From positions 499,395 through 563,394 of the forward strand of contig CBDHDD010000002.1 in the NCBI GenBank assembly GCA_965261405.1: a DNA stretch of 64,000 nucleotides. The letters run 5' to 3'. Shown piece by piece: positions 9,396 to 40,084 of this stretch (positions are counted from its first letter, which is position 1; every line of letters starts with the position of its first letter). The notes below the pieces were generated by a model. It was not told the origin of the DNA. It saw nothing but the letters and a program-made list of their open reading frames with translations, and did no database searches. The DNA is from Dehalococcoidia bacterium. GTDB taxonomy: Bacteria > Chloroflexota > Dehalococcoidia > Lucifugimonadales > UBA1127. The translations under genes and the position numbers were made by a program.

Positions 9396-10139
9396 TCATA
9401 CGCTGCCGAGCCTGACGAGCAGCGGGTCCGGAATACCGGCCTCAGCAAAACCCCTAGCGCGCAGGATGCAACTGTCGCACGAATCGCACGGAATCTCGTC
9501 GCCCTTGTAGCAACTCCAAGTATGCTCCAGTGGGGCCCCGAGCCTAGTCCCGAACGCGGCTATCTCGGCCTTAGATAGGTCGATAATCGGTGTCACGATA
9601 TTGATCGACACCGCGTATTCCGTCCAGAGCTTGCTCCCCAGTTCCAGCGTTCGCCTAATGCTGTCGTAGAACTCGGGGCGACAGTCGGGGTAGCCGCTGT
9701 AGTCAAGCGCGTTGGCGGCGATGTACACGGAGGCTCCAACATCAGAGGCGTCGATCCCTTCGACCTCGATTGCGTACAGCACTCGGCTCTCCAGGTAGGC
9801 CGCGGACAGAGAGAGGAAGATCGTGTTGCGCATGGGGACGTAGGTTATCGGAATGCCGTGCCCAATTTCCTCGCCGGAGCGCCCCGAAGGTACATGGAAG
9901 CGGTCGGGGTTGGTCAGGGCGGAGTACCAGCCAACGTCCGAGAGAAAGGAGATGTCGAGGAGTCTGTGCTCAATGCCCAGAATGCCGGCGATTCGCACGG
10001 CGGAGTCGACCTCCTTAGAGTGGCTCTGGCCGTAGCGGAATGTGATCGCCGACATATTGTCAACGCGGCCCTTTGCATAGGCAGCAACGGTAGTGGAGTC
10101 TAGTCCTCCGGACAAGAGAGTAACGCCGTAGCTAGGCAT
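9396..10139 (-). CDS. queC: 7-cyano-7-deazaguanine (preQ0) synthase QueC
   Basis: Starts at 'MPSYGVTLLSGGLDSTT' (PP-loop SGGxDS). 'GYPDCRPEF'. C-terminal Zn cysteines 'WSCYKG...CDSCDSCILR'. The longer ORF upstream is IS debris. Confidence 0.9.
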   Translation of the reverse strand: MPSYGVTLLSGGLDSTTVAAYAKGRVDNMSAITFRYGQSHSKEVDSAVRIAGILGIEHRLLDISFLSDVGWYSALTNPDRFHVPSGRSGEEIGHGIPITYVPMRNTIFLSLSAAYLESRVLYAIEVEGIDASDVGASVYIAANALDYSGYPDCRPEFYDSIRRTLELGSKLWTEYAVSINIVTPIIDLSKAEIAAFGTRLGAPLEHTWSCYKGDEIPCDSCDSCILRARGFAEAGIPDPLLVRLGSV

Positions 10140-22543: not shown

Positions 22544-25152
22544 TGGGACATCCTCCCCACAAAAAATGCAACATCAAGTTTCCGCCCCTCAAACCCATCC
22601 TGCAGCCTGCGGTCCGGACGATCCGGATCCATGGCATCAGCATGCAGGAACAGAAAATGTGAAGAACCCGGCGGCCTTACCCTCAGCAACAGGGTGGTAA
22701 CCAACGCTTCCCTGCCGAGAATCACGCCAGTGTGTCCCTGCGGAAGAGAATTGGGTGGTAGGTCAGCAGAATGGAAGAGGGGCCAAGCACGAGCCACCTT
22801 CTGAATGTCAGCCGCAGTGATAAGTGCATCTGGAGGGATGATCCAGTTCCAAACGCCACATGACACAAGCTTAGCTAAGGCTTCAATCCAACGTCTGGTT
22901 CGACGGACATCGCCCATGTCCTCGTCGCTGTAGAATATTACTGTGCGATTTCCACGGCCCAAAACACTACGAGCGGTATTGTCAATCTCCCTCTCAAATG
23001 GCCAAGCAAAGGCAGTATTTCGAGCGTGTTCAGTCAGTTTAGCTCTCCCGGCGGAGCGGCAATCTGGGCATCCCGCGCAGGCCGTCGCCACATGAACAGC
23101 CCTATGGCTGGTTTGATAGCTGTGAGAATTCACCTCAATCTCATAAATCGGGGCCAATAAATCCGCTATACAGTTGCCGCCTCGGAGCAATTGAACCATT
23201 CGCTGGAAATTAGTCCGATTGCTCCCGACTAGCCGCTCTCTCAGGGGAGAAACGACTTCCTGCCAATGCTCAATGCTAGGGTGCATCGGGTCGTCAAGTC
23301 GAACTCGTTGATACTGTTGGAAGAGATTGCTCCCAATCTCATCAAGTTCTTCCTCCTCACCTGAAGTCTCTTCAATTGACTTCATGGTTTCGTTATCAGG
23401 TCCGAGCAATCGAATCATCTTCGCGTTGGCCATAAGTGTTAGGGTTCTGATATGCCATTCCGTGTTCAGGTCACCGCCCATGTCCTGTCGTCCATTGCCA
23501 ACCCCTGGAGGGACATCAACAGCCAACCTAAATACATTATTCCCTTCATAGGAACTTCTCTTGTGATTGATCATCGATTGCCAACGATTGATGGCCCTTT
23601 CGATGGTAAGCAACTGCGGCCGGTTGAGCGAACGTGCGATTCCAACGTCGCGTTCAGTGGGAATGATAACTGATGCAGTTCCACCGCCATCACGACCTCC
23701 CCTTCCAACTTCTTGGTAGAAGCGATCTAGCGTCTCTGGAACACATGCATGCACGACGCATCTTACGTTTGGATTGTCAATCCCCAGCCCAAAGGCCGAC
23801 GTGCCAACAACCAGATCGAGCGTTCCTTCTCTCCAACCATGAATCACATTGTGTCGGTCGGAGGCACTGCTTTTGCCAGTCATCAATCCGATGCGCCTAA
23901 ATCCTTGGCCGTGTAGCAACTCATACCATTTGTGCGCTTTTTCTACTTCCGTTGCGTAGAGGATGGCCGGACGCGGCATGTGTAACACAGTTTCAAGAAC
24001 TCGCTCACGCTGCACCACACCGGAGATCTCTGGCGAAACCCAATACTCTATCTCCGGACGCAATTGGACAGCCGATAGGAAGTTCAATCCAAGATCCCCT
24101 CCGTCGGCAAACAACGCACGAAGGGTCTCTATCGTTGTTGTAGTCATGGTCGCCGAGAGAAGAAGCGTTTTGGGCGCCCGGTTCGAAGGCGATGCTTCAA
24201 TTAGTTCGGCGCGCACTCCACTCAGTGCTTGGAATGATGCACGGAAGTTCGCGCCCCATGCGTCGACTAGATGCGCTTCGTCAATGACAATTGCTCGTAA
24301 GAAGCCTACCCGTGCAGCGTGGAGGAGAGCTGGGTGCAGGGTAGTACAAACAGCCTCGGGGGAAGAAAAGCATAAACCTTGCGTGCCCATCCGTATCCTA
24401 TCAAGCATCTGGTGGCGTTCCTCCGCCGACACGCCACTGGTATAGGCAAGCCTATGACTCCCAAACCCCAAGTCTCTAGCGGCAATCGCATGGTCTTCCG
24501 CTAGGGCGCTGGTCGGCGTGACGACTAGCGTTACGCCCGGAACTCCGAGATCGGTTTCCAGTGCAGCCAGCAACTGGAATACAAAGCTCTTGCCGTCGCC
24601 AGTCGGAAGTGTGATGGCCAGCGAAGCGCCTGGCGGTGTCATGAAAGCAGCCCGAACGGCAGAACGTTGACCTCTGGTTTGGTAGCTATCCCGGTGGAGC
24701 AATGACAGAAAAGGATCGCCAGGCACCCTATCATAGGTGCGCCTAGTCGCCTCGCCGGCTGCGTGGCCGTCCACACCTCGATCCGGCACGTCCTGGAGCC
24801 ACGTCGGTCTCCATGGTGTTGCTTGCAGAAGCACCGAATCCTTACCTGCCTGCGTGTGTACGCCAGTAAGCCTCCAGTGGTTCAGGCTTGGCCAACCATC
24901 TTTGACGGGGACGCTGAGTTGTGCATCCGCTCCGGTAGTCTCTTGCTGGAAGCGGAGGACCTGCCGAACCAAGATCGCAAGGTCGATGGGTGATGGACGA
25001 TCGAGAGCGCCCTCCCTTAGTGCTGCTACCGCGCGCATCAATCTATTAAGGCTCGGATAGGCCGTATGAGAAAACTCCTCAGCTGCCAACACTTGATGAC
25101 TCAGAGCCTCGAAAGCCGCCAACCCTTCAAGTCCTGACCGCTGATACATCAT
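22540..25152 (-). CDS. dpdF: RecQ-like DEAD/DEAH helicase (DpdF-like)
   Basis: 'LPTGDGKSFVFQL', 'VIDEAHLVDAWG', 'LLSATMT', 'GTSAFGLGIDNPNVRCVVH...FYQEVGRGGRDG'. Confidence 0.7.
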   Translation of the reverse strand: MMYQRSGLEGLAAFEALSHQVLAAEEFSHTAYPSLNRLMRAVAALREGALDRPSPIDLAILVRQVLRFQQETTGADAQLSVPVKDGWPSLNHWRLTGVHTQAGKDSVLLQATPWRPTWLQDVPDRGVDGHAAGEATRRTYDRVPGDPFLSLLHRDSYQTRGQRSAVRAAFMTPPGASLAITLPTGDGKSFVFQLLAALETDLGVPGVTLVVTPTSALAEDHAIAARDLGFGSHRLAYTSGVSAEERHQMLDRIRMGTQGLCFSSPEAVCTTLHPALLHAARVGFLRAIVIDEAHLVDAWGANFRASFQALSGVRAELIEASPSNRAPKTLLLSATMTTTTIETLRALFADGGDLGLNFLSAVQLRPEIEYWVSPEISGVVQRERVLETVLHMPRPAILYATEVEKAHKWYELLHGQGFRRIGLMTGKSSASDRHNVIHGWREGTLDLVVGTSAFGLGIDNPNVRCVVHACVPETLDRFYQEVGRGGRDGGGTASVIIPTERDVGIARSLNRPQLLTIERAINRWQSMINHKRSSYEGNNVFRLAVDVPPGVGNGRQDMGGDLNTEWHIRTLTLMANAKMIRLLGPDNETMKSIEETSGEEEELDEIGSNLFQQYQRVRLDDPMHPSIEHWQEVVSPLRERLVGSNRTNFQRMVQLLRGGNCIADLLAPIYEIEVNSHSYQTSHRAVHVATACAGCPDCRSAGRAKLTEHARNTAFAWPFEREIDNTARSVLGRGNRTVIFYSDEDMGDVRRTRRWIEALAKLVSCGVWNWIIPPDALITAADIQKVARAWPLFHSADLPPNSLPQGHTGVILGREALVTTLLLRVRPPGSSHFLFLHADAMDPDRPDRRLQDGFEGRKLDVAFFVGRMSQ

Positions 25153-27269
25153 TCGAAGTCCTCAGATGAATGATCGTCGGTCTCGAGTTCGTACGCATTC
25201 GGTGGTGAGTTCGAGACTACGAACAGACCCATGGCATCAAGTCTTATGGTCGCCTGCCTGATTGCCTCCATCAACAACGCATTCACTTGCAAGTCGACGT
25301 CAATTGAAGAGCCAGCCGCGTCCCCAGTCTTCCTAGTTGCTAGTCGATCGTTGTCTGCAGCCAGAGCGCCCAGGGCATGTGCTACAACTCGATTCTTCCA
25401 AGATTGATGCTCTGTAGAATTCCCCACTAGCACTTGACCTGTTTCACGCGTGCGATAGACTGCCTCTTGGAACGCGCCAGGCTCGATTATTCGAAACAGC
25501 GACTCCCGCCGACTGCCGAGATTATAGTCCCGGCCCGCGTGGCCTCCGACGGTCGAATAACCGCGCTTAAGAATCCTCTGCAAGAGATCGTCGTTGATCG
25601 GCGATCCGTCCAAACCGACGTCAATCAGCATTGTCCAAGGAGGCAGAAGAGCGTCGAGACGACGCTGGATCGCGAATTCATCAATGTTGTCAGGCAGCAT
25701 AGTAGTCTCTCTCTGGATCGTAGACGCTTCGGCCTGAACGACATAGCTCAAACGGAATCCTAGCCAACGGCCCCAGCGTTCAGAATCCCACTCGGGATCC
25801 ACGCGCCAGGTCGCGAACGCGATGCCCCGGTCGTCCCACCGAAGGAATCTCTCCACAGCGTCGACGAGATGCATCCCCGGCCGCACGAGCCGTATCCCTG
25901 GGACAGTTGTTGCAATCGATCGCAGGTAAGTCAGATTGGACCCAAAGATAGAAGGATCGAACAATTCGCTCCAGGGTTCCTTTGGAAGCAGTGTTCGCTC
26001 TGACCACCCGAGACTGAATACTCCACGCCGTGACATCGAGTCGATGGGGCGGAACTTGAGGGTGCCGACCAGGAATCTCTGGAGCGGCTGGAAGCGTCGT
26101 GCCTCGTCGGCCGCGTCTAAGCACTCGAACAGCAGGTTCGCGTCATCGTCGGCCATCGCTCGGGAGTCAAGCGCATATTCCTCATCGAGGCGTTGGCGCT
26201 CACCGGCGATTTGACTACTCAAGGCCTCCATGATCTCGGTCAGCCCCTGTGCACCTCGCCGAAACAGCGCCAATTCAACCTGGCCACGCAAGTCATCAAG
26301 CAAAAACTGTAGTTCTGAAATCGACTCGTCGAACACATGGAACGTATCACGTATCGCCTCGAACCACGCCATCCACGGGTTTGGACCCTGACAATACGGC
26401 ACCACCACCCATTGGGGGATTTTGTCGCCAAACCTATGTCGGCCAAAGCGGTCAACCCTGCCAATGCGCTGCTCGATGCGCGCTGCGTCCACGGGGAGGT
26501 CGGCATGCACGATTGCCGTTGCAAATTGGAGGTTCAGTCCTTCCTCCGCACGTCGATCGCCAACCAGCACGGCATCGCGTGGAGATACACGGAATCCTTC
26601 CACCGCCCGAGCAATTTCGTCCTCAGTCGATTGCTCGGTTACCTTGAACACTGTCTCGTGCCCACACTCTTCCACAGCGTTGCTCAGTGAACTACCGAAC
26701 TGGCTGGATGAGGTCATCGCGACTACCTTTGCTGGCTCTTCGTCAGTACGTGTGCGGAGCGCCGCGCTGTGGACGACAGTGGCAACCAACTGCTCCCGAT
26801 TCCCGGCTGTCTCTTCTCGAAAGGCCTCTAGGGCCAGCCGCAATTCTCTCGATTCTCCCTCGAAGCATTCAGCATTCCTTTGCATTTCACTAAGGAGCCT
26901 CTCGCACTCTTCGGGGCTTTGGCCCAAAGTCTCTAGCATCAAGGCGTGTCTGTGAACAAGTACTCTTTCCAGCGCTTCATCAGGGTTCTCTACTAGGTAT
27001 TCGACTGCGGTCTGTCGCCAAGAATCCAATGCGTCGGCCATAAGAGGACTTCGCTCATCGTCGTCTTCTTCAGGCGTCACGTCACCTCGGCGAGGAACGA
27101 GCACCCATTCTGGCAAGTCGCGTCTCCTGGTTCTGACGAGTCGTTGATGAAGGCGATAAGTATCAGCGATATGGTGCCGTAGTCGAATGATAAGACTTGT
27201 TGCCTCGGGGATGTCCTTTTCAATTGCTTCACTCAAACTTCGCACTTCTTTAATCATCCGGGAATGCAC
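25149..27269 (-). CDS. dpdE: SNF2-family helicase, C-terminal (RecA2) half plus a long C-terminal region (DpdE-like, second polypeptide)
   Basis: 'VLVGDRRAEEGLNLQ' and 'HADLPVDAARIEQRIGRVDRFGR' (SNF2 motifs V/VI). GTG at 27269 or ATG at 27257. It overlaps the upstream ORF's stop. Confidence 0.65.
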   Translation of the reverse strand: MHSRMIKEVRSLSEAIEKDIPEATSLIIRLRHHIADTYRLHQRLVRTRRRDLPEWVLVPRRGDVTPEEDDDERSPLMADALDSWRQTAVEYLVENPDEALERVLVHRHALMLETLGQSPEECERLLSEMQRNAECFEGESRELRLALEAFREETAGNREQLVATVVHSAALRTRTDEEPAKVVAMTSSSQFGSSLSNAVEECGHETVFKVTEQSTEDEIARAVEGFRVSPRDAVLVGDRRAEEGLNLQFATAIVHADLPVDAARIEQRIGRVDRFGRHRFGDKIPQWVVVPYCQGPNPWMAWFEAIRDTFHVFDESISELQFLLDDLRGQVELALFRRGAQGLTEIMEALSSQIAGERQRLDEEYALDSRAMADDDANLLFECLDAADEARRFQPLQRFLVGTLKFRPIDSMSRRGVFSLGWSERTLLPKEPWSELFDPSIFGSNLTYLRSIATTVPGIRLVRPGMHLVDAVERFLRWDDRGIAFATWRVDPEWDSERWGRWLGFRLSYVVQAEASTIQRETTMLPDNIDEFAIQRRLDALLPPWTMLIDVGLDGSPINDDLLQRILKRGYSTVGGHAGRDYNLGSRRESLFRIIEPGAFQEAVYRTRETGQVLVGNSTEHQSWKNRVVAHALGALAADNDRLATRKTGDAAGSSIDVDLQVNALLMEAIRQATIRLDAMGLFVVSNSPPNAYELETDDHSSEDFE

Positions 27270-28353
27270 TTCTGATTTTCGCCAAAGTGTTTAGCAAGAA
27301 TGGTGCCGGTAAGCTGGGACTCAGAGCCAAGAGAAGGCGACCGTATTCTTGCCGCCTGCGAACACGATCAGCGAATTCGTCGCGCGCTTCGAAAGGATAT
27401 CCCGTTGGATCCAACAAGTGTAAGAGTGCCAAAAGAAGGTCTTCGTCGCCAAGCGTTGGAGTAGCTGATATCAGAAGCACTCGTGAGGCCAATCGTGTTA
27501 GTTCTTCAAGATGACGATATTCTTCATTTGCCCAGGCATTCTCAGGGATGAGATGATGAGCTTCATCGATAACCAAAGAGTCGACTTCTCCCGGCACGAG
27601 TTGCTTCAACTCCTCATGGGTCAGAATCGTTACGTTAGAACTCGTGAGAAAGAACCGGTCTCTCAGTTCTCTTACCCACTGCCCAAGGAGGGTGGCCGGA
27701 ACTAGGATTCCGACCCTCTCTGTCGGATTGTCGATGACTGCCTGGCGTACAATCGCACCGGCTTCAATCGTCTTGCCGAGGCCCACCTCGTCCGCTAATA
27801 AATAACGTTGGATAGGATCCTGCAAGATGCGCCGAACTACCTGAATCTGATGGGGGAGTAGTTCAACGGACGCCGACAGGAGTCCGGTCAACCCATGCCC
27901 AGCAGCCCTACTATTGGTGATGCATTCAAGCGCGCCCTGGCGGGCGTCGAAGAAATATTGAGTCTCCATGCCACCGTTAGCGAGAATAGCGGCGGGGTCG
28001 TCAACAGGCAATAGGCAACGCACGTGTAAGTGCCGTTCAGGTATCCTATGACTCAACCGATTTGGGAACTGGATATCATATGCTATCTGCCCCCCACCAT
28101 CGAGAGTCGAACCCACGAAATAATCAACGACACGTCCCACCATCCAGTGCCCCGCACCACTCTCGACATATACCCGAGTCTGCGGACTAAGATATGCTCG
28201 CCTAATCTGCTGTGCCGGGTACACTAGATCGAATGTCCGGGAAGGAGACCTGAAAAACCGGACCGTGGCCTGTTCCTCATCTGAATCTACTAACCGCCCA
28301 ATACCATTCTGATCAAGTGTCCAAACGAACTCACCATTCCTAAGCCGAACCAT
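27250..28353 (-). CDS. dpdE: SNF2-family helicase, N-terminal domain plus RecA1 lobe (DpdE-like, first polypeptide)
   Basis: 'LLPHQIQVV', 'LLADEVGLGKTIEAG', 'LVIDEAHHL', 'LLISATP'. It ends at the TAA at 27250-27252. Confidence 0.65.
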   Translation of the reverse strand: MVRLRNGEFVWTLDQNGIGRLVDSDEEQATVRFFRSPSRTFDLVYPAQQIRRAYLSPQTRVYVESGAGHWMVGRVVDYFVGSTLDGGGQIAYDIQFPNRLSHRIPERHLHVRCLLPVDDPAAILANGGMETQYFFDARQGALECITNSRAAGHGLTGLLSASVELLPHQIQVVRRILQDPIQRYLLADEVGLGKTIEAGAIVRQAVIDNPTERVGILVPATLLGQWVRELRDRFFLTSSNVTILTHEELKQLVPGEVDSLVIDEAHHLIPENAWANEEYRHLEELTRLASRVLLISATPTLGDEDLLLALLHLLDPTGYPFEARDEFADRVRRRQEYGRLLLALSPSLPAPFLLNTLAKIRSAFPDD

Positions 28354-28590
28354 CTGCTCTCGATTCCCTATCCCCGCCGCTGCCAGTAACAGAGTTTGCT
28401 GGCGCGAAAAAATCTGACCAGGGATTTTTCCCTATGGTAAGACATGGTTCAAGCGGTGACCACCCTAAGAATCGACGCTCAGTGGCATAACACTCCTTAG
28501 GGGTGTAGAGACAGCAGGCCTAGCAAAGACGAAGGGCACCGCTCCACCCTGAATTCACAAACGAAGTGGAACACCAGATCAGGGTGTTGC

Positions 28591-29060
28591 CATGGGATAC
28601 CGACAACTCTCCATTGAGGATCGGTGTGAGCTTGCCCAATTGTCCTGCGGGCGCGGGGAGGCAGACACGATGCTCTTCGGGAGGTCAGGGTAGGTGGTGC
28701 CGGCCCTGCACGAGCGCCACTCGCGCCTGCTGATCGCAGCGCGGGCGCTGCCGCCGGCGTTTCGACAGTCGGTGACCTTCGACAACGGGACGGAGTTCGC
28801 CCGTCATCACGAGTGTGCATCGAGACCTTCTTCTGCGACACCGACTTGCCGTGGCAGAAGGGCGGGGTGGAGAAAGCGATCGGGCAGCTGCGCCGTTTCC
28901 TGTCCGGTAGGACGGTCCTGGCGGATGTGTCGGAGGAGCGGTTCTCGCTGATAATGCAGACGCACAACAACACGCCGCGCAAGTGCCTCGGCTACCGGAC
29001 ACTGACCGAGGTTTTCATGGCCCAGGTGTTGCACTTCAAATTTGAATCCACCGCGCAGCC
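28591..29060 (+). mobile_element. IS30-family transposase pseudogene (internally deleted and frameshifted)
   Basis: N-terminal 'MGYRQLSIEDRCELAQL', then a stop. 'VTFDNGTEFARHHE' is in a second frame. 'FFCDTDLPWQKGGVEKAIGQLRRF...HNNTPRKCLGYRTLTEVF' is in a third. Confidence 0.7.
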
Positions 29061-29748
29061 GGGAACAGTTGAGATCGGAATGGGCATCGCAATGATCAGG
29101 GAACGGCGGATAGGCCACTATCGATTCTGCGAATCTTCAAGGTGCGGGGTAGGGAGCCACTTCCCTTCGCCCTTGGAACGACAACGGCGCAGCGAAAAGG
29201 GACTTGCCGGTTGTCCGGCCACAGCAAAACGTCAAGAAAGACATCCCCGCCCGCCGCATTGTGGATGGCGCAGGCTCTCGCCGGAGCATATCCACGCGCA
29301 ACACCGCCGCACCATGTGATGCTCCACGAACGCCTTCCCCACGCCGCGGCGTCGCTACAGGAGACGCAAGCAGAGGTCCCGCCTTTGCCACACCCGCGTT
29401 AAGATGCTATCGAACACCCCGGGAGCGCCCTGACAACAAGACATGGCGACGAACGGAGAACAAGTTGCCCCCGCGGTTGCCTCGCCGTGCCCACTACCGA
29501 CGAACCGGTCCGATACACCATGGGAAGCCCATACCGCCGTTCAAACAGCGAGAGTAACGAGACCTACCTCAACCATGGCGCCTTGTAGTAAAACGCCGTA
29601 TCATACATCGTGCATAGCAACAAGGCTATATCATCTCCCCGTTCCGTGCCTAGGAACGCGGCATCCCCTACCTCTTGGGAACAATCCATCTATGGTTCCC
29701 TACACAACCACATAAGCCTTGCCCACAAGAACACACCGAGTTACTCAA

Positions 29749-30111
29749 ATGATATTGTTTAAGGAACCTGCTGCATCCATGATCCTTCGCGGAGAGAAGA
29801 CTCAGGCACGCAAAATGTGGTCGCGACCACGGGCGAAATTAGGATCTGAGCATCTAGCATGCCGAAGGCTTCCTATGCGCGGCGAAAAACCATTTGCCAA
29901 GATCAAGATAGACCGCATTTGGCGCCAGCGGCTCGGGGATATATCGGAAGCTGATATTAAAGCTGAAGGATACACTGGACGGGAAGAATATATAAGACAG
30001 TATATATTGGGTCGAACCGTTCCCGAGCCGGTGGAAGACGTTGAAGTGTACGTGTTGGAGTTCCATATCGTGGAGCGATATGAGCCTGTGCCGCCTATTC
30101 AACCCCAATGA
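29749..30111 (+). CDS. ASCH-domain protein
   Basis: 'MILFKEPAASMILRGEKTQARK...FAKIKIDRIW...DISEADIKAEGY...VLEFHIV' fits the ASCH pattern. The ATG at 29749 is preferred over the upstream alternative start. Confidence 0.65.
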   Translation: MILFKEPAASMILRGEKTQARKMWSRPRAKLGSEHLACRRLPMRGEKPFAKIKIDRIWRQRLGDISEADIKAEGYTGREEYIRQYILGRTVPEPVEDVEVYVLEFHIVERYEPVPPIQPQ

Positions 30112-30751
30112 TCTTGTGCAGTTGAACGCCCAACCTCCATCCAGGCAAATGGTTCAGCAACTCAATCGCTGACCTTAGATTCGTGGTGGTTTGGTCTAGG
30201 TCAGCATCCCAAACAATGGGCTGCAGGTATCGAACCTGGGCTTCGATTGCATCGTAGCCCTCCGGCCGTATCTCAGGGTTTGGATGGGGCCACAACAATT
30301 TCAACGTATCAGCCCTCCCAATCACCGTCATTGCCGGAGGCAGTTTTGGCGAAAGAGTCAAGTGGTCGAGCCGCTCCAAAACCCCGTCGCGAAACGCCTT
30401 CGTTCCGTTGGTTTCGATGGCGACGCGATAATTCTCAGAGTGAAGAGCGTCTAGCAAAGGTGCGTCAATTTGAAGCGCAGGTTCGCCGCCACTCACCCAA
30501 ACCCATTCAGCACCTGGCGTTCGGAGTGTTGAAAGCCTGGCCAGAATCGAGTCGCTAGTTTCCATTGTGTGGGAGAAAAACTCTGTATCACAATAGGGGC
30601 ACTTCGAATCGGCCTTCGTTTGCGGGCGCCCGTCCCACATGTTGCAACCGGAAAAGCGCAGGAAAAGGCAAACAACACCCGCTAAGGCTCCCTCGCCCTG
30701 GATGGTGGGTCCAAAGATGCTATTCACGCCGTATCGATGCACTACAACCAT
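30095..30751 (-). CDS. queE: 7-carboxy-7-deazaguanine synthase QueE (radical SAM)
   Basis: 'IFGPTIQGEG'. Cluster motif 'C-x14-C-x2-C' (CNMWDGRPQTKADSKCPYC). 'VSGGEPAL'. Starts at 'MVVHRYG'. Confidence 0.85.
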   Translation of the reverse strand: MVVVHRYGVNSIFGPTIQGEGALAGVVCLFLRFSGCNMWDGRPQTKADSKCPYCDTEFFSHTMETSDSILARLSTLRTPGAEWVWVSGGEPALQIDAPLLDALHSENYRVAIETNGTKAFRDGVLERLDHLTLSPKLPPAMTVIGRADTLKLLWPHPNPEIRPEGYDAIEAQVRYLQPIVWDADLDQTTTNLRSAIELLNHLPGWRLGVQLHKIIGVE

Positions 30752-31127
30752 TAGACTCCCACAAAGTAATCGCTTCGACATTAAACGGAGTGTGATCCTC
30801 CAGGCTGCGCAGCAGAAACGAAGCAATGTTCTCAGCCTGTGGGCGCCAGTTAAGAGTAACCACACTCGGGGCCAGTTACACCAACGACGCCGAACATGGT
30901 TAATCACGGTGTACGACGAAGCGGTGGTCAAGGTTAGCGTCAATGAAACCGCCGGCCACCGCCTTCAGGGCGGCAAAACCACCAACCATCCCCTTGTCGT
31001 CCAACGAAGGCGCACAGACAGTTACGGGAGCAACGCAACCATAGCCGTGAAGATTGGAACACGAAGCAGGATGGTTGTATAGAGTATAACCCCTAGTAAA
31101 TTCGAATCTTCGCGTAATGCTGGTCAT
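30720..31127 (-). pseudogene. queD: QueD-like 6-carboxytetrahydropterin synthase interrupted by two in-frame TAA codons
   Basis: A single frame reads '[10 protein letters not shown]...LHGYG...LDHRFVVHRD*PCSASLV*LAPSVVTLNWRPQAENIASFLLRSLEDH...ITLWESNGCSASIRRE'. Stops are at 30900-30902 and 30876-30878. The start overlaps the upstream stop (ATGA). The 3' end overlaps the queE start. Confidence 0.65.
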
Positions 31128-31461
31128 TGCATGTACTCCGTTGGATCCATCACCCCAGCTTCCTGAAAGGCCTCCCGGCGCTCGCAGCAGATGCCACATT
31201 CCCCACATTGCGGCTCGAGTCCCTTATAGCAAAACCAAGTTGCAGCCCAGTCTTATACCAACTCTTCGCCGCTTCTGACAATGTCGCTGAAGCCAAGGAG
31301 TGTATAGGTGGAGCATAGCCCTCTGTTGCTATCGATTCCATCGCAGCAAATGACTCGATAGTCGCCGGACGACAATCAGGGTAGATGGGGTGATCACCAA
31401 GGTGCACGCCAGCAGTTACAATAGGCATTCCCGAACCGGGGGGCGTTGAGAATGCTCGCAC
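31124..31461 (-). pseudogene. QueC-like 3' fragment (N-terminal half missing, -1 frameshift near 31229)
   Basis: 'PIVTAGVHLGDHPIYPDCRP...' resembles QueC 'DYSGYPDCRPEF'. After a frame change it reads '[34 protein letters not shown]', which is the QueC Zn/C-terminal motif. No PP-loop region is present. Confidence 0.6.
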
Positions 31462-31816
31462 CCCCGTGTTCCTCGAGAGGCAGGAGATGCCGTCGGTCGT
31501 CGGTCACCAGGAAGTCGGCGGTGGCGGTCGCCACGCACTCCAGGATGCGGTTGTCGGCGTGGCCGCCGTCGATCATCTCCGGAAGCCGCGGGGGCTCGAT
31601 GACGCTGCCGGCATGCCCGATCGCCCAGAGAGCCTGTGACGAGCGTTCGTCGGTCCATCCGAACTTTCGCGCAAGCACCCCGGCAACCTCCTCCAGGATG
31701 AAGGGGGAAAGATACATCTCGAACCGTCCCCTTAGCGCCAAATCGAGAACGCGGCGCTCGTTGCCGTGACGGTTCAGACCGGAGACGATGACGTTGGAAT
31801 CGAGGACAACGCGCAT
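31394..31816 (-). CDS. PIN-domain toxin (VapC-like)
   Basis: 'MRVVLDSNVIVSG...' is the N-terminal acidic PIN motif. 'FLVTDDRRHLL'. About 140 aa. Its 3' end runs into the queC-like fragment. Confidence 0.75.
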   Translation of the reverse strand: MRVVLDSNVIVSGLNRHGNERRVLDLALRGRFEMYLSPFILEEVAGVLARKFGWTDERSSQALWAIGHAGSVIEPPRLPEMIDGGHADNRILECVATATADFLVTDDRRHLLPLEEHGGASILNAPRFGNAYCNCWRAPW

Positions 31817-32070
31817 GGACGGGAGGCGTTGACTTCGGCCCGGTACTCGTCCATCAGAGCGGCTGCGTCTTCAGGTCCGATGCCCCTCTCCCTGGCCCTC
31901 TCCTCTCCGTACTGGGGCAACTGCCGCCACTCGCACTCGTCAATTTTACGGAGCAACTCCTCCCGCAGGAACTCGCTCCTTGACCCTCCCTGTTGCTTCA
32001 TCGCCTCGTCCACCCGGTCCGCCATCTTCGGCGGCAAGGAGAAGGTGATGGTCCTGGTCGTTCGCGGCAT
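31774..32070 (-). CDS. Ribbon-helix-helix (CopG-type) antitoxin
   Basis: Starts at 'MPRTTRTITFSLPPKMADRVDEAMKQQGGSRSEFLREEL' (RHH beta-strand plus helices). It overlaps the PIN start. Confidence 0.65.
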   Translation of the reverse strand: MPRTTRTITFSLPPKMADRVDEAMKQQGGSRSEFLREELLRKIDECEWRQLPQYGEERARERGIGPEDAAALMDEYRAEVNASRPCALSSIPTSSSPV

Positions 32071-32401
32071 GCCCACCTCTTGTGACCGAGTTGTGCATGA
32101 CACTGCGCCATCGGCGTACTCTCTGTCAAAGGTCTCGAGCCCTCCACCGAAGGACTTTGAGCCGGGAGGACAGGCAGGGCCACGCTCCGCCGTCCACTTG
32201 ACGGGCGGAAGCGGGGAACGGCGGCGGGAGCCTATCAAATCGGACTATCTTCAAGAGAAGACGGGGGTGGGAAGTCACCTCTTCCCCTGGACCTTGCTCT
32301 TGAAAACCTCGTCGGCGGAAATGGAACAACTGCTCAGTGCCGATGCGTTGTTGTAGCATAGACACTGACCATCCCGGACCAATTGAACGCGGAGGTTTGC
32401 T

Positions 32402-32869: not shown

Positions 32870-35434
32870 CTAGCCCAGGGTTTCATCAAAGCCCAGATCT
32901 CGGACCCGCTGGTAATCGCTCTCCGCCCCTGCCGTGTCCCCCAGGGTTTCGCGCGCCACTCCCCTGCCGTAGTAGGCGGAAGCGCTCGCAGGGTCGCAGG
33001 CGATCGCCGCGTCGAAGTCCGCTATCGCCAGGTCCACGTTTCCGCTGAAGAGATGGGCGCTGCCCCTGCCGCGATGCGCAACCTCATTGTTGGGATCCAG
33101 GTGTAGGCTGACGTCAAAGTCGGCCAGTGCTCGATCATAGTCTCCACTGGCGAGATGGGCGTCTCCGCGGAACCTGTACGCATATGGGTCTTCGGGGTCA
33201 CGGTGCAGCGCCCTATCGAAGTCGGCAATCGCCCGGTCGAATGCACCCTGCCTACGAAGGACTGCTCCCCGCCCGCGATAGGAGCGGGCGCTCTCGGCGT
33301 CGAGTTCGATAGCGGTGTCGAAGTCGGCAATCGCCGAGTCGTATTCCCCTCGGTAGAGCCGGCACTCACCCCTTGCCTGGTAGGCTTGGACAAAGCCAGG
33401 GTCCAGGCGAATGGCCTCGTCAAAGTCGGCGATGGCTAGCTCAAGGGCGTTGAGTTCTCCGTACGACAGTCCGCGGTAATGGTGGGCCATCGCTGCTCCC
33501 GGGCTGAGGCTGATGGCCTGGGACATATCGGCAATCACCTGCTCATGACTCCCCATGTACCCGTGGACGATGCCGCGCAGTACGAGGGCTCCAACGTTTC
33601 TGGCATCGAGCCGTAGGGCAGCGTCAAGGTCTGAGACTGCCTGGCTATCCTCTCCCTTGAGGAAGTGTGACCTTGCCCTGGCAACGTATGCGGCCGCGTC
33701 TTGGGGGTCGCCCTTTATGGCGACGTCCTGAGATGCGAACGCACGATCATCGCTGCCACCACCAGCGCCCGCCGTCATTACTGCCCGTATGGCTTTGGCT
33801 ATGTCCAAAGTACGGTCCAACACCGTTCCCGCGCCCAAGAAACGGGCGGCCTTGCCGTAGCGGTTGGATGTGATCTTGTCGCCGGCCATCAACGCGGCTA
33901 CTGCGGCGGCCACCGCGAAGGATGGATCGTCGGGATTCAATTGCAGGGACGACTCGAAGGCCGCCAGCGCTGCGGCATGCTCTCCGACCTGCGCTTGCGC
34001 CGACCCCAAGGCAAAATAGTACCGGGCATCCAGGGGTCCGCAGGTGGGCGCGACGCCCACTAAGTGGGCAACCGCCTCCTCCGCCCTACCCAGTTGCAGA
34101 AGCAACCACCCGATTTCAGCCCAGGGAAGAATCCAGTCGGGGTCCAAGGCATGAGCGAGCCAGCAGGATTGCATTCCCCGGGAGATAAGACCTGCGTCCC
34201 CGGTCATGCCGCCAATGCCGCCCAGGGCGGAACCCAAGGTAAAGTGGTTCACAGGGTCGAGCGGGTCCAGGTCAACCGCCTTGGCTACCTCGGCGATAGC
34301 TTCGGGGATCCTCCCCTGCACCTGCAGTTCCTCGGAACGCTGGTAGTGCTCGTAGGCTTTGGGGTTACGAACCTCCCAGCGTTCAAGGATACGACCATCC
34401 GTCCGCTCTATGAGCTCATTCACCTCCGCCCGGTGTACCTGCAAGTTGACCTCCAGTACGCGGCCGACCCAATCGAAGTTCGCAGCCAGGAGGTCAGCTT
34501 TCCACTCCTCGTCGCTCTCCAGGATGGCCAGTGCGGCGAGCAGGGGCTCCGCGCGCGGAGCGTGCACCCCCAGCATAACGAGCTCGAGGTGGTCGACGGG
34601 TCCGCCTGCGGCCACCTCCTCACCGTGGATGATGCGAAATGCCTGTAACGCATAGCGGTGGAGGTGGCCCACGATTTCGTTCACGGCATCGACGCCAAGG
34701 TGCTTCCCCAGGACCGCGGCAACATCGCTGGTCCAGTAGAGCAGCCGTAGGTCACGGACTATCCGGGCACGTTCCTGGGGGTCACCGCGGGGCGCCAGCG
34801 CCTCACCGATCTTCAGCAGGTTTTCGTCTGTAGGCCGCGCCCTGCGGTAAAGCCACGCCTCCGCCGTGTTCTTGAAGACTCCCGCAGCGGCTGGGAAGTC
34901 AATCACGGGGATTCCCGCCTTCTTACGCTGCTGGTTCAGGTACCTTCCCCGCCGGGTGACATCCGCCCACGCGAGGAAGTCCAGCGCTGTCTCCGACGCG
35001 CCGGTATAGTGGAGGAGTGCAGCTAGCCTCAGGGCCAAATCGATACTCGCCAGCCTGAGGTACGCTTTCCAAAGAGTGGCGAGACTGCTGGGATACACGC
35101 GCATCATCCTGGGGAGGAGAAACGCCCTCAACCGGTCCCAGTTGACGGTATGTTCGTTAAGTATGGACGAGAGCACGGAGTGGAACGGCATCTCGTCATT
35201 AGGCTGAGGCGTCGCCTCAAAGCCCAAAACGGCCAAAGTCTCCACGATAGCCGCAAGCGTCTCCTCGCGGCTGAGCTCCTTCACTTGCTCGTCGCGCCGT
35301 CCGCTGAAGAACCGCTTGGCAGTCCTGTCACGGAGCATCGCGTCCTGGAAGCCCATAGTATCTACCAGGACACCCAAGATCTGTCCGCTGGTCGGCAACT
35401 GTTGCGAAACTTCAAACTCCACGGCGCCATGCAC
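32870..35434 (-). CDS. 854-aa protein: unknown N-terminal region with a possible HTH segment, plus a long C-terminal TPR array
   Basis: The C-terminal ~500 aa hold many 34-aa repeats ('A..D..AI.LDP....AY..RG'). The N-terminal part contains 'GIPVIDFPAAAGVFKNTAEAWLYRRARPTDENLLKIGEAL'. Confidence 0.75.
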   Translation of the reverse strand: MHGAVEFEVSQQLPTSGQILGVLVDTMGFQDAMLRDRTAKRFFSGRRDEQVKELSREETLAAIVETLAVLGFEATPQPNDEMPFHSVLSSILNEHTVNWDRLRAFLLPRMMRVYPSSLATLWKAYLRLASIDLALRLAALLHYTGASETALDFLAWADVTRRGRYLNQQRKKAGIPVIDFPAAAGVFKNTAEAWLYRRARPTDENLLKIGEALAPRGDPQERARIVRDLRLLYWTSDVAAVLGKHLGVDAVNEIVGHLHRYALQAFRIIHGEEVAAGGPVDHLELVMLGVHAPRAEPLLAALAILESDEEWKADLLAANFDWVGRVLEVNLQVHRAEVNELIERTDGRILERWEVRNPKAYEHYQRSEELQVQGRIPEAIAEVAKAVDLDPLDPVNHFTLGSALGGIGGMTGDAGLISRGMQSCWLAHALDPDWILPWAEIGWLLLQLGRAEEAVAHLVGVAPTCGPLDARYYFALGSAQAQVGEHAAALAAFESSLQLNPDDPSFAVAAAVAALMAGDKITSNRYGKAARFLGAGTVLDRTLDIAKAIRAVMTAGAGGGSDDRAFASQDVAIKGDPQDAAAYVARARSHFLKGEDSQAVSDLDAALRLDARNVGALVLRGIVHGYMGSHEQVIADMSQAISLSPGAAMAHHYRGLSYGELNALELAIADFDEAIRLDPGFVQAYQARGECRLYRGEYDSAIADFDTAIELDAESARSYRGRGAVLRRQGAFDRAIADFDRALHRDPEDPYAYRFRGDAHLASGDYDRALADFDVSLHLDPNNEVAHRGRGSAHLFSGNVDLAIADFDAAIACDPASASAYYGRGVARETLGDTAGAESDYQRVRDLGFDETLG

Positions 35435-35481
35435 CTCCAGTTGTGGTCTCTCGGTGGGTCACGGGTTCTGCCCGATTCGGG

Positions 35482-36351
35482 CTACCAGCCGTACAGTCCA
35501 CCCCTCTCGAGGAATCGCTGAGTATCCACAGCAATGTCCTTGATTGCCTCTTCGACTCCCACCTCGATTATAGGTCGGCTGTAGGTGTGTGCCCCCGATG
35601 TATTGTCGAAGAACCGCCCGGCCGGATCCACCATGACGTAGCTCCCGGTCATCAGGTCGTTCGACTCCGGCACGACACGAACGCCGTAGTCCTCGACGCG
35701 CCGGCTCGATTGAACGTAGCGCTCAAACTCATCCGGTGCGACCACATACTGGTCCACTTCAGCGTCGTTCTGGCCTTTGACGGGGAGCACCTGCAGGAGC
35801 TTCCATCGCTCTGGCCGAGCCGCAATGATGAAGTCCGTGAGGTCCTCCTCCAGATTGCTGCGGGTCACGACGGTGTTCACCTTTATGCGGGCGCCGTACC
35901 CTCTGAGGAGGTCAATCGCTCGCGCGTAGTCATTGGCCGTCAGCGGGCCCGCCCGCAGGGTCCGCCCGATGCCACTGAGGGTCTCTGGATTCACCGAGTC
36001 GATGCTCAGTGCCGCCCAATCGAGACTCCCGTTTACCCTCTCCAGCCATGCCCGCGTGATCCGGCTGCCGTTGGTGACCACCGAAGTGGTGAGCCCCAGT
36101 TTCTTGGCATGGGTGATGAGGTCGGGCAACCAGGGGCAGAGGGTTGGCTCTCCGCCCGCGAAGTTTATCTTCTGGATGCGGGCCCCGGCGAGCGCATCCA
36201 CCAGCTTGAGGCAGTCCTCGCGATCTAGATGACCCTTGGGCAGTGTGTCGCGTCCGACATCTTGAAAGGTTGCGAAACAAAACCCGCATCGCATGTTGCA
36301 GGGTTTCCAGAGGTGGTAGTTCACCGTAGGTATGCCGATTGTGCTCTTCAT
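35482..36351 (-). CDS. Prokaryotic viperin (pVip), radical-SAM ddhNTP synthase family
   Basis: Collinear with animal viperin as I recall it: 'VNYHLWKPCNMRCGFCF' (CxxxCxxC), 'KINFAGGEPTL', 'VVTNGS', 'KVNTVV', 'RWKLLQVLPVKGQN', 'VPESNDLMTGSYVMVD', 'IEVGVEEAI', and C-terminal 'FLERGGLYGW'. AAGGAGG lies upstream of the ATG. Confidence 0.85.
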   Translation of the reverse strand: MKSTIGIPTVNYHLWKPCNMRCGFCFATFQDVGRDTLPKGHLDREDCLKLVDALAGARIQKINFAGGEPTLCPWLPDLITHAKKLGLTTSVVTNGSRITRAWLERVNGSLDWAALSIDSVNPETLSGIGRTLRAGPLTANDYARAIDLLRGYGARIKVNTVVTRSNLEEDLTDFIIAARPERWKLLQVLPVKGQNDAEVDQYVVAPDEFERYVQSSRRVEDYGVRVVPESNDLMTGSYVMVDPAGRFFDNTSGAHTYSRPIIEVGVEEAIKDIAVDTQRFLERGGLYGW

Positions 36352-38330: not shown

Positions 38331-38425
38331 GGAGGGCAGAAAGTTGACCCGGCGATGCGACAAACATCCCGGGCCGTGGCGCCACCCGCGGGTAGCAGGT
38401 GATGCAAAGGCATTGTACCACCCGC

Positions 38426-38458
38426 AGACCCGCTCCCAACAGGAGGCGGGTCTTTTTG
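38426..38458 (+). terminator. Intrinsic-terminator-like hairpin plus T-tract, 28 nt upstream of the recombinase start
   Basis: agacccgc-[tcccaacaggag]-gcgggtct followed by tttttg. Confidence 0.55.
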
Positions 38459-38485
38459 ATTGCAGAGGATGTGAAGGGGGCAGCA

Positions 38486-40084
38486 ATGGCGAGAACCATC
38501 AATAGGAAGACCGAAATGAATCGGGCGGCCATCTACGCCCGCGTCTCGGACAAGAGCCAGGACGGAGAGGACAAGACCTCCCTCTCCGAGCAGACCGCCG
38601 ACATGGAGGCCTACTGCGCCCGCAAGGGCTTGCGCATCGTTGCCCGCTACCAGGAGGTGGGCCGGGGCTGGTCCAAGAAGCGCCCGGAGTTCCAGCGCAT
38701 GCTGGACGAGGCCCGCGAGGGCCGCTTCGACACCGTCGTCTGCTGGAAGTCCGACCGCCTGAGCCGGGGCATGTACCCTGCCGCCGCCCTCATGGAGGTG
38801 GTGGAGGCCTACCAGATCGGCCTGGAGGCGGTCATGGACGCCATCGACATGAAGACCTTCGGCCTCATGGCGGCCATCGGCAAGATCGAGTTGGACAACT
38901 TCCGCGAGCGGGCAACCATGGGCAAACGGGGGACGGCCAAGCAGGGGCGCATACCCTCAGGCGGAGTCCCCTACGGCTACCGCATCGGCGCGGACGGCAA
39001 GCCTGCAGTGGTGGAGGCTGAGGCTGAGATTGTGCAGCGCATCTTCCGCCAGTACGTTCACGAGGGGCTAGGGATACCGACGATTACCCGCCAGATCGAG
39101 GACGAAGGAGTCCCTACGGGAAAGCCAAGCGGCAAGCGTTGGTACGGTTCGCACCTCAATCGCATCCTGAGGAATGAGGCCTACAGGGGCACGTGGACCT
39201 ATGGCCGAAGCAGGCACGTTTCGACTGAGGACGGGAGAGTGACCTACCAGCAGCCAGAGGAGAACTGGATAGAGATACCATTCCCCCCGCTGGTGGACGA
39301 AAGAACCTGGGATATGGCCCAGAAGCTCAGGAAGCAGCGGCTGATCCGGTCCAAGAGGAACACCAAGGTGTTCTATCTGTTGCAGCACCTCGTCAGGTGC
39401 GCGGAGTGCGGGATGCTCTTTGGAGGGCGAGCAACGAATCAGAATACCGTGAGACGCCGCGGTAAGCTCTATCAGTACCACTTTGACACCCCCCGTCGGT
39501 ATTACCAGTGCTACGGGATGCAGAAGCACCAGTCTCGCTGCCGGCAGCATCCGTTCATCCGGGCGGAACGGTTGGAGGACCTGGTCTGGGGCGAGGTCAC
39601 GAGGGTGCTGCAGAATCCCGAGGTCATCGTGACTGGCATCGATGCTCTCAATGTACGGGAAGACCGCGGGGCGGCAGAGGAGCTCGCCAAAGCGGAGCGG
39701 GATCTGCGCGAGGTGCAGATGGAAGAAGAACGGTGCATCAGACTGTATGTGTCGGGGAAGATCACCGAGGACCAGCTCGACCATCAACGTAAGTTCGTTA
39801 CCGAACGCCTGGAGAGTCTCCGAGCAAGGGTGGAAGACTACCGCGCACAAAGAGCTACGGACACCGAGAGACGAGCACTTGCAGGGAGGCTGATCGAGTG
39901 GGCCCGGAAGTTTGGGGAGGGGACAGATGGGTTGAACGCTGAGCAGCGCCGAGAGATTCTGCTGCTTCTCGTTGACAGCGTCGCAATCGACCGTGACGAC
40001 AGCGTCAGCATCTCCCTGGCCATCCCTACTGGGGAGTTTTGTGCAAATGCAACCCCGAATAGTTCATGCTCGTCGGCGCGATGA
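38486..40084 (+). CDS. Large serine recombinase (island integrase)
   Basis: 'AAIYARVSDKSQ' (catalytic Ser region) and 'WKSDRLSRG'. Recombinase domain 'PYGYR...'. Zn-ribbon 'CAECG...YYQCYG...C'. C-terminal coiled coil. The ATG at 38486 follows gaaggggg. Confidence 0.9.
   Translation: MARTINRKTEMNRAAIYARVSDKSQDGEDKTSLSEQTADMEAYCARKGLRIVARYQEVGRGWSKKRPEFQRMLDEAREGRFDTVVCWKSDRLSRGMYPAAALMEVVEAYQIGLEAVMDAIDMKTFGLMAAIGKIELDNFRERATMGKRGTAKQGRIPSGGVPYGYRIGADGKPAVVEAEAEIVQRIFRQYVHEGLGIPTITRQIEDEGVPTGKPSGKRWYGSHLNRILRNEAYRGTWTYGRSRHVSTEDGRVTYQQPEENWIEIPFPPLVDERTWDMAQKLRKQRLIRSKRNTKVFYLLQHLVRCAECGMLFGGRATNQNTVRRRGKLYQYHFDTPRRYYQCYGMQKHQSRCRQHPFIRAERLEDLVWGEVTRVLQNPEVIVTGIDALNVREDRGAAEELAKAERDLREVQMEEERCIRLYVSGKITEDQLDHQRKFVTERLESLRARVEDYRAQRATDTERRALAGRLIEWARKFGEGTDGLNAEQRREILLLLVDSVAIDRDDSVSISLAIPTGEFCANATPNSSCSSAR

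Follow-up and report, generated by a model that had tools for sequence, protein, structure and literature searches.

We analysed a 64-kb window of DNA from an uncultured Dehalococcoidia bacterium, and all coordinates below are those of the window. A queC'-queD-queE remnant lies at the right edge of a Dpd island, with all three genes on the minus strand. Dpd islands (dpdA to dpdK) were reportedly described by Thiaville et al. in 2016. The island in the window is a low-GC block of about 3.2-31.4 kb, which in the GC profile stops at the queC' truncation, and it encodes DpdA, D, E, F, G, H, J and K, a weak DpdI, YhhQ and QueC. The features at its right edge are as follows.

29719-30111, plus strand: ORF with an ASCH domain (Pfam ASCH, 25.2 bits), convergent with queE and overlapping its 3' end by 17 nt
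30095-30751, minus strand: queE (7-carboxy-7-deazaguanine synthase, Cx14CxxC type), intact, 218 aa, stop TAG at 30097-30095
30720-31127, minus strand: queD pseudogene (PTPS fold; Pfam PTPS) with TAA at 30902-30900 and 30878-30876 and Tyr at two Zn-ligand His
31124-31437, minus strand: queC' remnant, C-terminal half only (Pfam QueC, positions 116-209 of 210, E = 3e-11)
31394-31816, minus strand: PIN-domain toxin gene (Pfam PIN_3, 54 bits, model positions 1-115 on residues 2-109; also TIGR00305)
31774-32238, minus strand: RHH (CopG-type) antitoxin gene, 5' of the PIN gene and oriented like the operon remnant (Pfam RHH_1, 27.5 bits)

Related contigs were used as comparators. L001 has 93-97% nucleotide identity to the window. 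The more distant L002 and L003 carry an intact dpdA-queC-queD-queE adjoining dpdE, and L085 carries dpdA-queC-queD, its queE being lost except for a remnant. As in the window, queE is trailed by a small convergent gene in L001 and L003.

From 31127 to 30720, queD reads in one frame of 135 codons, with TAA as codons 76 and 84. The conceptual protein matched the Pfam PTPS model (PF01242) over positions 2-121 of 121 (73.4 bits, E = 2e-20), and thus QueD homology extends across both TAA codons, as the initial annotation had read from conserved blocks on either side of them. That annotation had also pointed to 'RGY' and 'HGYG' where Zn-binding His were expected, and these correspond to TAT at codons 14 (31088-31086) and 29 (31043-31041). 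We take the Zn ligands of E. coli QueD to be His16, His31 and His33, as in PTPS/QueD structures. In a profile alignment to the E. coli protein (PDB 4ntm), Tyr14 falls on His16 and Tyr29 on His33, bearing out the suspicion, while His27 (E. coli His31) and Cys23 (E. coli Cys27) are retained; one of the three Zn-ligand His remains. E. coli QueD, a CPH4 synthase (PDB 4NTK, 4NTM and 4NTN), belongs to the same PTPS/T-fold family, and the window protein keeps the aligned catalytic Cys and the LDH motif, but it differs in the Tyr residues at the His16 and His33 equivalents, in its two premature stops and in a sub-equivalog score. Against the NCBIfam QueD equivalog TIGR03367 (cutoff 89.25 bits), the intact proteins from P0122 and L002 scored 89.7 and 86.2 bits, L001 59.7 and the window, under the cutoff, 53.1. 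Judged by four intact outgroups and PDB alignments (the homologue search gave four proteins in total), 19 of the 64 QueD sites invariant in intact homologues are altered in the window. The dN/dS of queD between the window and L001 is 0.97, and queD evolves neutrally.

The N-terminal PP-loop (SGGxDS) is absent from queC', as had been noticed earlier. Homology to the tested family, QueC / 7-cyano-7-deazaguanine synthase (PF06508, TIGR00364), begins at model position 116, and the DNA upstream is that of the PIN gene. A single -1 shift near 31229 had been proposed to restore the C-terminal motif. Instead, comparison with orthologues revealed two 11-nt deletions (at 31305/31304 and 31289/31288), whose net -22 is equivalent to -1, together with a TAA in frame at 31255-31253, which had been overlooked. 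The remnant has no continuous reading frame; its Cys cluster (C...CxxCxxC) is present in the last frame, in alignment with the QueC of L085 and L002. It is 75% identical to the L085 QueC but 31% identical to the full-length QueC of the window. Frame translations showed that the last ~14 codons of the PIN toxin gene run out of frame into queC', and this 3' tail is the deletion junction as well as the edge of the low-GC island.

The remaining gene, queE, is intact as first described. Its product has the radical-SAM cluster motif C-x14-C-x2-C (SGC NMWDGRPQTKADSK C PY C), and its best NCBIfam match was TIGR04508 (queE_Cx14CxxC) over positions 1-207 of 208, at 156.2 bits, which is below the equivalog cutoff of 240 bits. 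By homology the gene starts at ATG 30751 (with GGGAG 4 nt upstream) or GTG 30742, and not at GTG 30727. The protein is 97% identical to P0001 and belongs to a divergent clade frequently seen in phages; this clade recurs in contigs with phage hallmark genes, beside queC, DUF6884, queF and folE. Conservation is high, with 49 of 50 columns kept where at least 95% of 119 homologues agree, and 87 of the 88 sites that are invariant in four outgroups. The dN/dS of queE against L001 is 0.31 (0.17-0.52 for neighbouring genes), and synonymous changes are in excess (p = 0.01-0.03) in a test that rests on 17 substitutions. These values argue that queE is under purifying selection and is not decaying.

The queC' stop codon (TGA 31126-31124) lies over the queD ATG in an ATGA overlap (31127-31124) that is conserved in intact operons. 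The overlap between queE and queD is 23-32 nt, with a matching overlap in the intact relatives L002 and L003, and the earlier view that both overlaps mark a once-coupled operon is well founded. Alignment with the orthologous operons of L002/L003 and L085, proposed earlier as a check, confirmed the decay. The window and L001 have in common the queD TAT codon 14 (His14Tyr), about 18 further changes at invariant QueD sites, the queC' TAA and a 9-nt deletion. Both queD TAA codons, His29Tyr and the two queC' 11-nt deletions are found in the window only: L001 has TAC and GAA at the TAA positions, and CAT at codon 29 where the window has TAT. The private changes of L001 are a TGG>TGA and a 1.15-kb deletion, which removes the whole RHH-PIN toxin-antitoxin module (window 32539 to ~31385). 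Its queD has an open frame of 135 codons, yet 18 of the 64 invariant sites are changed. The comparators indicate that the lesions of the window are real and that they arose stepwise. Since His14Tyr and numerous further changes had damaged queD before L001 and the window diverged, the conclusion that its function is lost is independent of the two TAA codons.

Taken together, the data support a formerly coupled queC-queD-queE operon that is undergoing pseudogenisation and is now unable to make preQ0 alone. The initial annotation's central claim, that the operon has lost its own de novo preQ0 supply, is upheld by the intact relatives, the shared and private lesions of L001, the queD dN/dS near 1 and the 19 altered sites. 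The annotation had further called this a second operon. That is correct for queC alone and wrong for queD and queE, for which this is the sole locus in the 64 kb, where folE is also absent; no other QueD, QueE, FolE or QueF homologue was found there. An exact-pattern scan of JGI metagenomes gave no match to either allele of the TAA region, and no second assembly carrying the exact window alleles was found in the assemblies and metagenomes searched. Look-ups of the NadB and DpdF encoded in the window gave no record. Scans with QueE yielded a single, uninformative contig of 1.4 kb from the JGI metagenomes and no relative from the genome collection.

The two TAA codons, and the extra T in dpdE described below, might be assembly or consensus errors in an operon that is intact and functional, and L001 does have an unbroken queD ORF and an intact dpdE, while the contig of the window itself did not turn up in the collections searched. 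We regard this as quite improbable. Both stops are single-base transversions in a non-repetitive context, which is untypical of consensus error, and the queC truncation history, the queC' TAA and His14Tyr are common to independent assemblies. Moreover, the ORF-intact QueD of L001 still lacks one Zn ligand, has changes at 18 of the 64 invariant sites and falls 30 bits short of intact QueDs, and a complete operon queC is present in neither assembly. The open L001 frame, kept over 135 codons despite those changes, could also mean that the QueD-like gene of L001 and the window had gained a new, Zn-independent function through adaptive changes and was lost in the window recently. This is very improbable, because queD dN/dS between the two is about 1 with two nonsense changes, the partner queC is truncated and has a shared stop, and no family besides PTPS/QueD was matched; nor did the homologue search (four hits in total) yield an ORF-intact Tyr14-type clade under purifying selection. 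Finally, the in-frame homology that runs past both stops would be expected if TAA were read through or recoded and a full-length QueD-like protein were made, a reading to which we give almost no credence. TAA as a sense codon had been named earlier as something that would overturn the decay, but TAA is a real stop here, used by RibD and a UvrD-like gene and ending them where their domains predict. The two sites also differ in relatives, which carry Tyr or Asp at one and have Glu, Lys or Ala at the other. A tRNA scan of the window found no tRNA, suppressor or other, and the protein would in any case lack two of its three Zn ligands.

The source of preQ0 in this island has to be considered with four further genes.

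3257-3955, plus strand: yhhQ-family queuosine-precursor transporter gene at the left end of the island (Pfam Vut_1, 196.6 bits; TIGR00697, 184 bits, above the 50.95 cutoff)
4088-5806, plus strand: dpdA, encoding the DNA-guanine transglycosylase that consumes preQ0 (NF041059, 332 bits, above the 200 cutoff; PADLOC DpdA, E = 5e-94)
9396-10139, minus strand: queC, intact and unrelated to queC' (Pfam QueC, 203 bits; TIGR00364, 183.6 bits, above the 150.3 cutoff)
25149-28353, minus strand: dpdE, two ORFs split by a +1 T at 27253 (PADLOC DpdE, positions 2-364 and 387-1084)

DpdD, E, F, G, H, J and K matched PADLOC/NCBIfam models and DpdI did so weakly, with DpdA and DpdD above the NCBIfam equivalog cutoffs. 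The second broken gene of the island is dpdE; its homologue in L001 is intact (1070 aa). DpdB, the DndB/ParB-like ATPase partner of DpdA, had no match among the PADLOC-scanned ORFs, of which small ORFs were scanned non-exhaustively. The DpdA N-terminus (residues 7-137) weakly matched DUF6884 (25.7 bits, under the cutoff of 30), which is cited as the DpdC domain (PMC12235509). Identity between the window DpdA and its counterparts in L002 and L085 reaches only 40-41%, against 67% and 51% for DpdE, and the QueC encoded at 9396-10139 is 32% identical to operon-type QueC.

Dpd 7-deazaguanine modification/restriction islands have been reviewed (PMC5699537) and surveyed (PMC12235509); preQ0 genes are often present in them, and yhhQ sometimes (PMC5699537; PMC12235509). 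The window island likewise has dpd genes, queC, queD, queE and yhhQ (reported for a subset of islands) and a defence-island setting. However, it differs from known islands in having no detected DpdB, at most the weak DUF6884 domain on DpdA for DpdC, a UvrD-like helicase and a PD-(D/E)XK nuclease following dpdA, and a frameshifted dpdE. In addition, part of its preQ0 module is pseudogenised, and the island apparently joins two modification modules that differ in lineage. The locus also resembles the phage-type queC-queD-queE-folE modules of phage DpdA systems (e.g. PMC6884629): the QueE clade (Cx14CxxC, ~210 aa) and the queD/queE overlap recur in the contigs with phage hallmark genes. The window, in contrast, has no folE after queE, a dead queD, a truncated queC and the setting of a chromosomal Dpd island instead of a phage genome.

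Our preferred reading, which we hold with a probability of about 0.8, is that the locus is the eroded end of a Dpd island in which queC' and queD are dead and queE is retained, serving a hybrid preQ0 route. As the relatives show, dpdA, queC, queD and queE formed a translationally coupled, phage-type module in the ancestral island. Everything upstream of mid-queC, the cognate dpdA and the PP-loop half of queC included, is now missing, and the remnant is fused to the 3' end of the PIN toxin gene. From that point queC' and queD drifted neutrally: the queC' TAA, His14Tyr, the ~18 invariant-site changes and the 9-nt deletion are placed before the window/L001 split, and the two queC' 11-nt deletions, His29Tyr and the nonsense transversions GAA>TAA and TAC or TAT>TAA later in the window lineage. 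Throughout, queE has retained its frame, its radical-SAM cluster motif and nearly all conserved residues under purifying selection. The other end of the island may be a module of different lineage (yhhQ, the DpdA with its weak DpdC-like N-terminus, the UvrD-like helicase, the PD-(D/E)XK nuclease and queC), whose presence would have made the original dpdA and queC dispensable.

In the hybrid route, host FolE and host QueD would supply CPH4, the island QueE would form CDG, and the QueC encoded at 9396 is the likely partner that turns the QueE product into preQ0; import by YhhQ may supplement or replace this route. Transcription of queE would probably be by read-through from the RHH-PIN operon, and translation from its own GGGAG-ATG. 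The island queE is probably still in use alongside the intact, unrelated queC (9396-10139), and outside supply is then probably needed for QueD and FolE only. The earlier suggestion of reliance on this queC plus host queD and queE can be kept for queC, which is intact and probably used, and should be dropped for queE, since the island copy is constrained. Reliance on YhhQ salvage or host queD is plausible.

The whole remnant, queE included, could instead be dead, with queE merely not yet struck and preQ0 coming wholly from YhhQ salvage or host genes. The operon partners of queE are gone, dpdE is broken too, yhhQ is present, just 17 substitutions inform the selection test, and the loss of queE in L085 means that the gene is dispensable in some islands. 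On the other hand, queE shows a dN/dS of 0.31 and a synonymous excess; of its 88 invariant positions 87 are unchanged, as are 49 of the 50 highly conserved ones, beside a queD of the same history that lost 19 of 64. The island also keeps an intact queC, which is of use only with CDG being produced. We therefore consider a dead queE unlikely and retain the reading of an eroded island end with a queE that is probably still in use. More tentative, at slightly less than even chances, is our proposal that the island is a two-module chimera in which selection maintains the hybrid preQ0 route, with an orphan phage-type QueE, the QueC of the replacement module and host CPH4. Given the failure to find DpdB and the frameshift in dpdE, the Dpd system as a whole may be disappearing, which would weaken the idea that the hybrid route is in use. 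If the chimera proposal is true, sister islands lose different steps (queE in L085), and the preQ0-supply genes would be a recurrent, lineage-specific target of loss in the Dehalococcoidia population.

The system is of a known kind, and its decay is ordinary pseudogenisation that raises no new mechanism or question. It does offer a clean, polarised, stepwise case of operon decay within a defence island, with a dead queD beside a constrained queE, and a small data point on how Dpd systems source preQ0, with island, host and salvage mixed. For annotation, queD and queC' should be listed as pseudogenes, and the island should not be counted as complete for de novo preQ0 synthesis.

A deaminase-like C>T bias had been suspected from the His>Tyr changes and a possible CAA>TAA. 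We rejected it because the two nonsense changes are transversions (G>T; C or T>A) and the only window-derived C>T among these queD changes is His29Tyr. An Rfam scan found no preQ1 riboswitch or other family, and promoter and terminator predictions were at chance level only. A look-up of DpdG returned solely L004, a fragment at 2x coverage. Individual IS fragments in the window had no Pfam match; their stitched translation matches IS30. The NadA encoded in the window is 92-94% identical to its matches in Dehalococcoidia MAGs in a scan of the genome collection.

The frame of queD (31127 to 30720, minus strand) has 135 codons with TAA at 30902-30900 and 30878-30876, and with the stops masked its product matches the Pfam PTPS model across its whole length (73 bits). 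It is joined to the truncated queC' by an ATGA stop/start overlap (31127-31124). The homology of queC' is confined to positions 116-209 of 210 in the QueC model and is scattered across three frames. Downstream of queD, queE is an intact radical-SAM gene with the motif C-x14-C-x2-C, and its top NCBIfam match is queE_Cx14CxxC, aligned full-length at 156 bits, which is under the equivalog cutoff of 240. It starts at ATG 30751 (GGGAG 4 nt upstream) or GTG 30742 (homologue N-termini MRRYGVH.IFGPTIQGEG), and thus overlaps queD by 23-32 nt; intact relatives have the same overlap. The initial annotation described this remnant accurately except for queC', where it placed a -1 shift near 31229; four-way alignment replaces this with two 11-nt deletions and an in-frame TAA.

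A QueE search identified a 97% identical protein encoded on contig L001, whose DNA matches the window at 93-97% identity across the stretch spanning the TPR gene to dpdH. Among more distant relatives, L002/L003 carry an intact dpdA-queC-queD-queE adjoining dpdE. In L085, dpdA-queC-queD is intact and adjoins dpdE, and queE is a frameshifted stub of ~35 codons before dpdE (L085 10414-10478; contig coverage 1x). Loss in L085, with queE gone and queC and queD kept, thus appears to be the opposite pattern to the window.

The lesions were polarised by the four-way alignment. Common to the window and L001 are, in queD, TAT at codon 14 (CAC or CAT, His, in the outgroups), Met12Arg, numerous further replacements and a 9-nt deletion, and, in queC', the TAA at 31255-31253 (TTA in L085). 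Found only in the window are the 11-nt deletions in queC' (31305|31304 and 31289|31288) and, in queD, CAT>TAT at codon 29, GAA>TAA at codon 84 and TAA at codon 76 (TAC in L001, GAT in the outgroups). L001 alone has TGG>TGA in queC' and a 1.15-kb deletion (window 32539-~31385; L001 ~9376) at a short imperfect TCACCC match, which took the N-terminus of a 97-aa ORF, an RHH antitoxin, a PIN toxin and the initial ~50 nt of queC'. The private lesions show that neutral decay is ongoing in both lineages. In the window the RHH/PIN pair lies upstream of queC' in the same orientation, and the PIN ORF enters queC' out of frame for ~14 codons. The pair is cleanly absent from the near-identical strain.

In a profile alignment (PDB 4ntm), queD codons 14, 27 and 29 align to His16, His31 and His33 of E. 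coli QueD, the three Zn ligands in PTPS/QueD structures. The window keeps one of the three histidines and L001 two. Sites invariant in four intact homologues are changed at 19/64 in the window and 18/64 in L001, and the QueD equivalog score (cutoff 89.25) falls from 86-90 bits in intact proteins to 59.7 in L001 and 53.1 in the window. Between the window and L001, queD has a dN/dS of 0.97 with the two nonsense changes left out. The lost ligands, changed invariant sites, lower scores and dN/dS together indicate that queD was most probably inactive before the stops arose, and sense codons on resequencing would not rescue it. The dN/dS of queE in the same comparison is 0.31, a value in line with its functional neighbours (0.17-0.52), with a synonymous excess (p = 0.01-0.03). 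Only 1/88 invariant QueE positions is changed, and 49 of the 50 columns at least 95% conserved among 119 homologues are kept, the exception being a D>E also present in the intact L002 protein. Thus, queE looks maintained by selection. That queE is dead as well and has not yet been hit is unlikely, since these constraint data speak against it.

Sequencing error would explain the window-private lesions only. Lesions that recur in two independent assemblies cannot have arisen in assembly, and an error could rescue neither queD nor queC'. Recoding of TAA as sense is excluded: RibD and the UvrD-like gene both stop at TAA, the two queD TAA sites are different amino acids in relatives, and the window contains no tRNA. 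The Tyr14 allele of queD might instead have gained a new function, but this has no support, as queD has a dN/dS of ~1 and the homologue search (4 proteins returned) found no clade of Tyr14-type proteins. Decay of a coupled queC-queD-queE operon, as proposed initially, is upheld, with refinements, by the related-locus alignment, queD dN/dS and Zn-ligand loss. The locus shows ordinary pseudogenisation, and the system it belongs to is of a known kind: a Dpd island that supplies preQ0 only in part. As an evolutionary case it is tidy and helps annotation; its general significance is limited.

On its right, a block of low GC content (~0.51-0.59 vs ~0.64) ends with the remnant; by its gene content this block is a Dpd 7-deazaguanine DNA-modification/restriction island. 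Its genes include DpdD, K, J, a weak DpdI, H, G, F and E, and the following features.

3257-3955, plus strand: yhhQ-type precursor transporter
4088-5806, plus strand: DpdA with a weak N-terminal DUF6884 domain
5803-8154, plus strand: UvrD-like helicase, same operon, after DpdA
8157-9338, plus strand: PD-(D/E)XK nuclease, same operon, after DpdA
9396-10139, minus strand: intact QueC
25149-28353, minus strand: dpdE, two ORFs of 367 aa and 706 aa, +1 T at 27253 (GATGAT[T]AAAG)
~28590-29090, plus strand: IS30-family transposase remnant between dpdE and the ASCH/queE genes, frameshifted, N-terminus deleted

DUF6884 is listed as the DpdC domain (PMC12235509), and the window DpdA may be a DpdC-DpdA fusion; the DpdA homologues of L002 and L085 share this architecture. 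DpdB was not detected among the ORFs scanned with PADLOC, and the Dpd modification module here may be a variant that lacks it. L001 dpdE is intact (1070 aa), and relative to it window dpdE has, besides the extra T, a 9-nt in-frame deletion at ~26867. Given the split dpdE, the restriction arm may be inactivated too. The dpdE frameshift and the lack of a detectable DpdB weaken confidence in full activity of the system. The stitched IS30 translation scores 78 bits against NF033563 (model positions 184-267), and the window carries 148 bp (29053-29201) that L001 lacks.

DpdA requires preQ0. The island itself could still convert CPH4 to CDG with QueE and CDG to preQ0 with QueC, so the outside need would be limited to H2NTP and CPH4. 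These might come from host FolE and QueD, or preQ0 might be imported via YhhQ. Neither a second QueD nor any FolE or QueF was found within the 64-kb window. The suggested reliance on the intact queC, host genes and YhhQ thus probably holds in outline, but host queE would be unneeded, as the island queE looks selected. Only a subset of Dpd islands carries preQ0 genes, and ~9% carry yhhQ (PMC5699537, PMC12235509).

This QueE clade, like the queD/queE overlap, recurs on contigs that carry phage hallmark genes, and there folE follows queE. The closest wider relatives (contigs L087-L092) have operons of the form (queF)-queC-(DUF6884)-queD-queE-folE, with terminase, portal and capsid genes nearby in some and DNA polymerase and RNR genes in others. 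The island preQ0 module is therefore of a type seen in phages, although the window queE has no folE following it. queC' is 75% identical to L085 QueC and 64% to L002 QueC, both operon-type, vs 31% to the complete QueC of the window. Window DpdA is 40-41% identical to that of L002/L085, and DpdE 67% and 51%. From these identities, we infer a two-module history as the simplest reading. The ancestral island would have held its own dpdA-queC-queD-queE module; a second module from a different lineage (yhhQ, DpdA, helicase, nuclease, queC) would have been gained later or been present already; and a deletion from the flanking toxin-antitoxin locus would then have eliminated the original dpdA along with the 5' half of queC.

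Taken more widely, the window is a defence island with the features below. NadA, encoded in the same window, shares 92-94% identity with Dehalococcoidia MAG chromosomes.

659-1474, plus strand: CBASS-type oligonucleotide cyclase (PADLOC E=2e-64)
35482-36351, minus strand: prokaryotic viperin (NF038283, 302 bits)
38399-40084, plus strand: large serine recombinase with Resolvase, Recombinase and Zn-ribbon domains

The recombinase lies beyond the Dpd/toxin-antitoxin/viperin block and is a candidate integrase for a larger, mobile defence island. After the cyclase comes a 391-aa protein that carries GmrSD_C and Excalibur domains and may be an effector (region 659-2649, plus strand). The viperin adjoins an 854-aa TPR protein (region 32870-36351, minus strand), and this pair is kept in L001.
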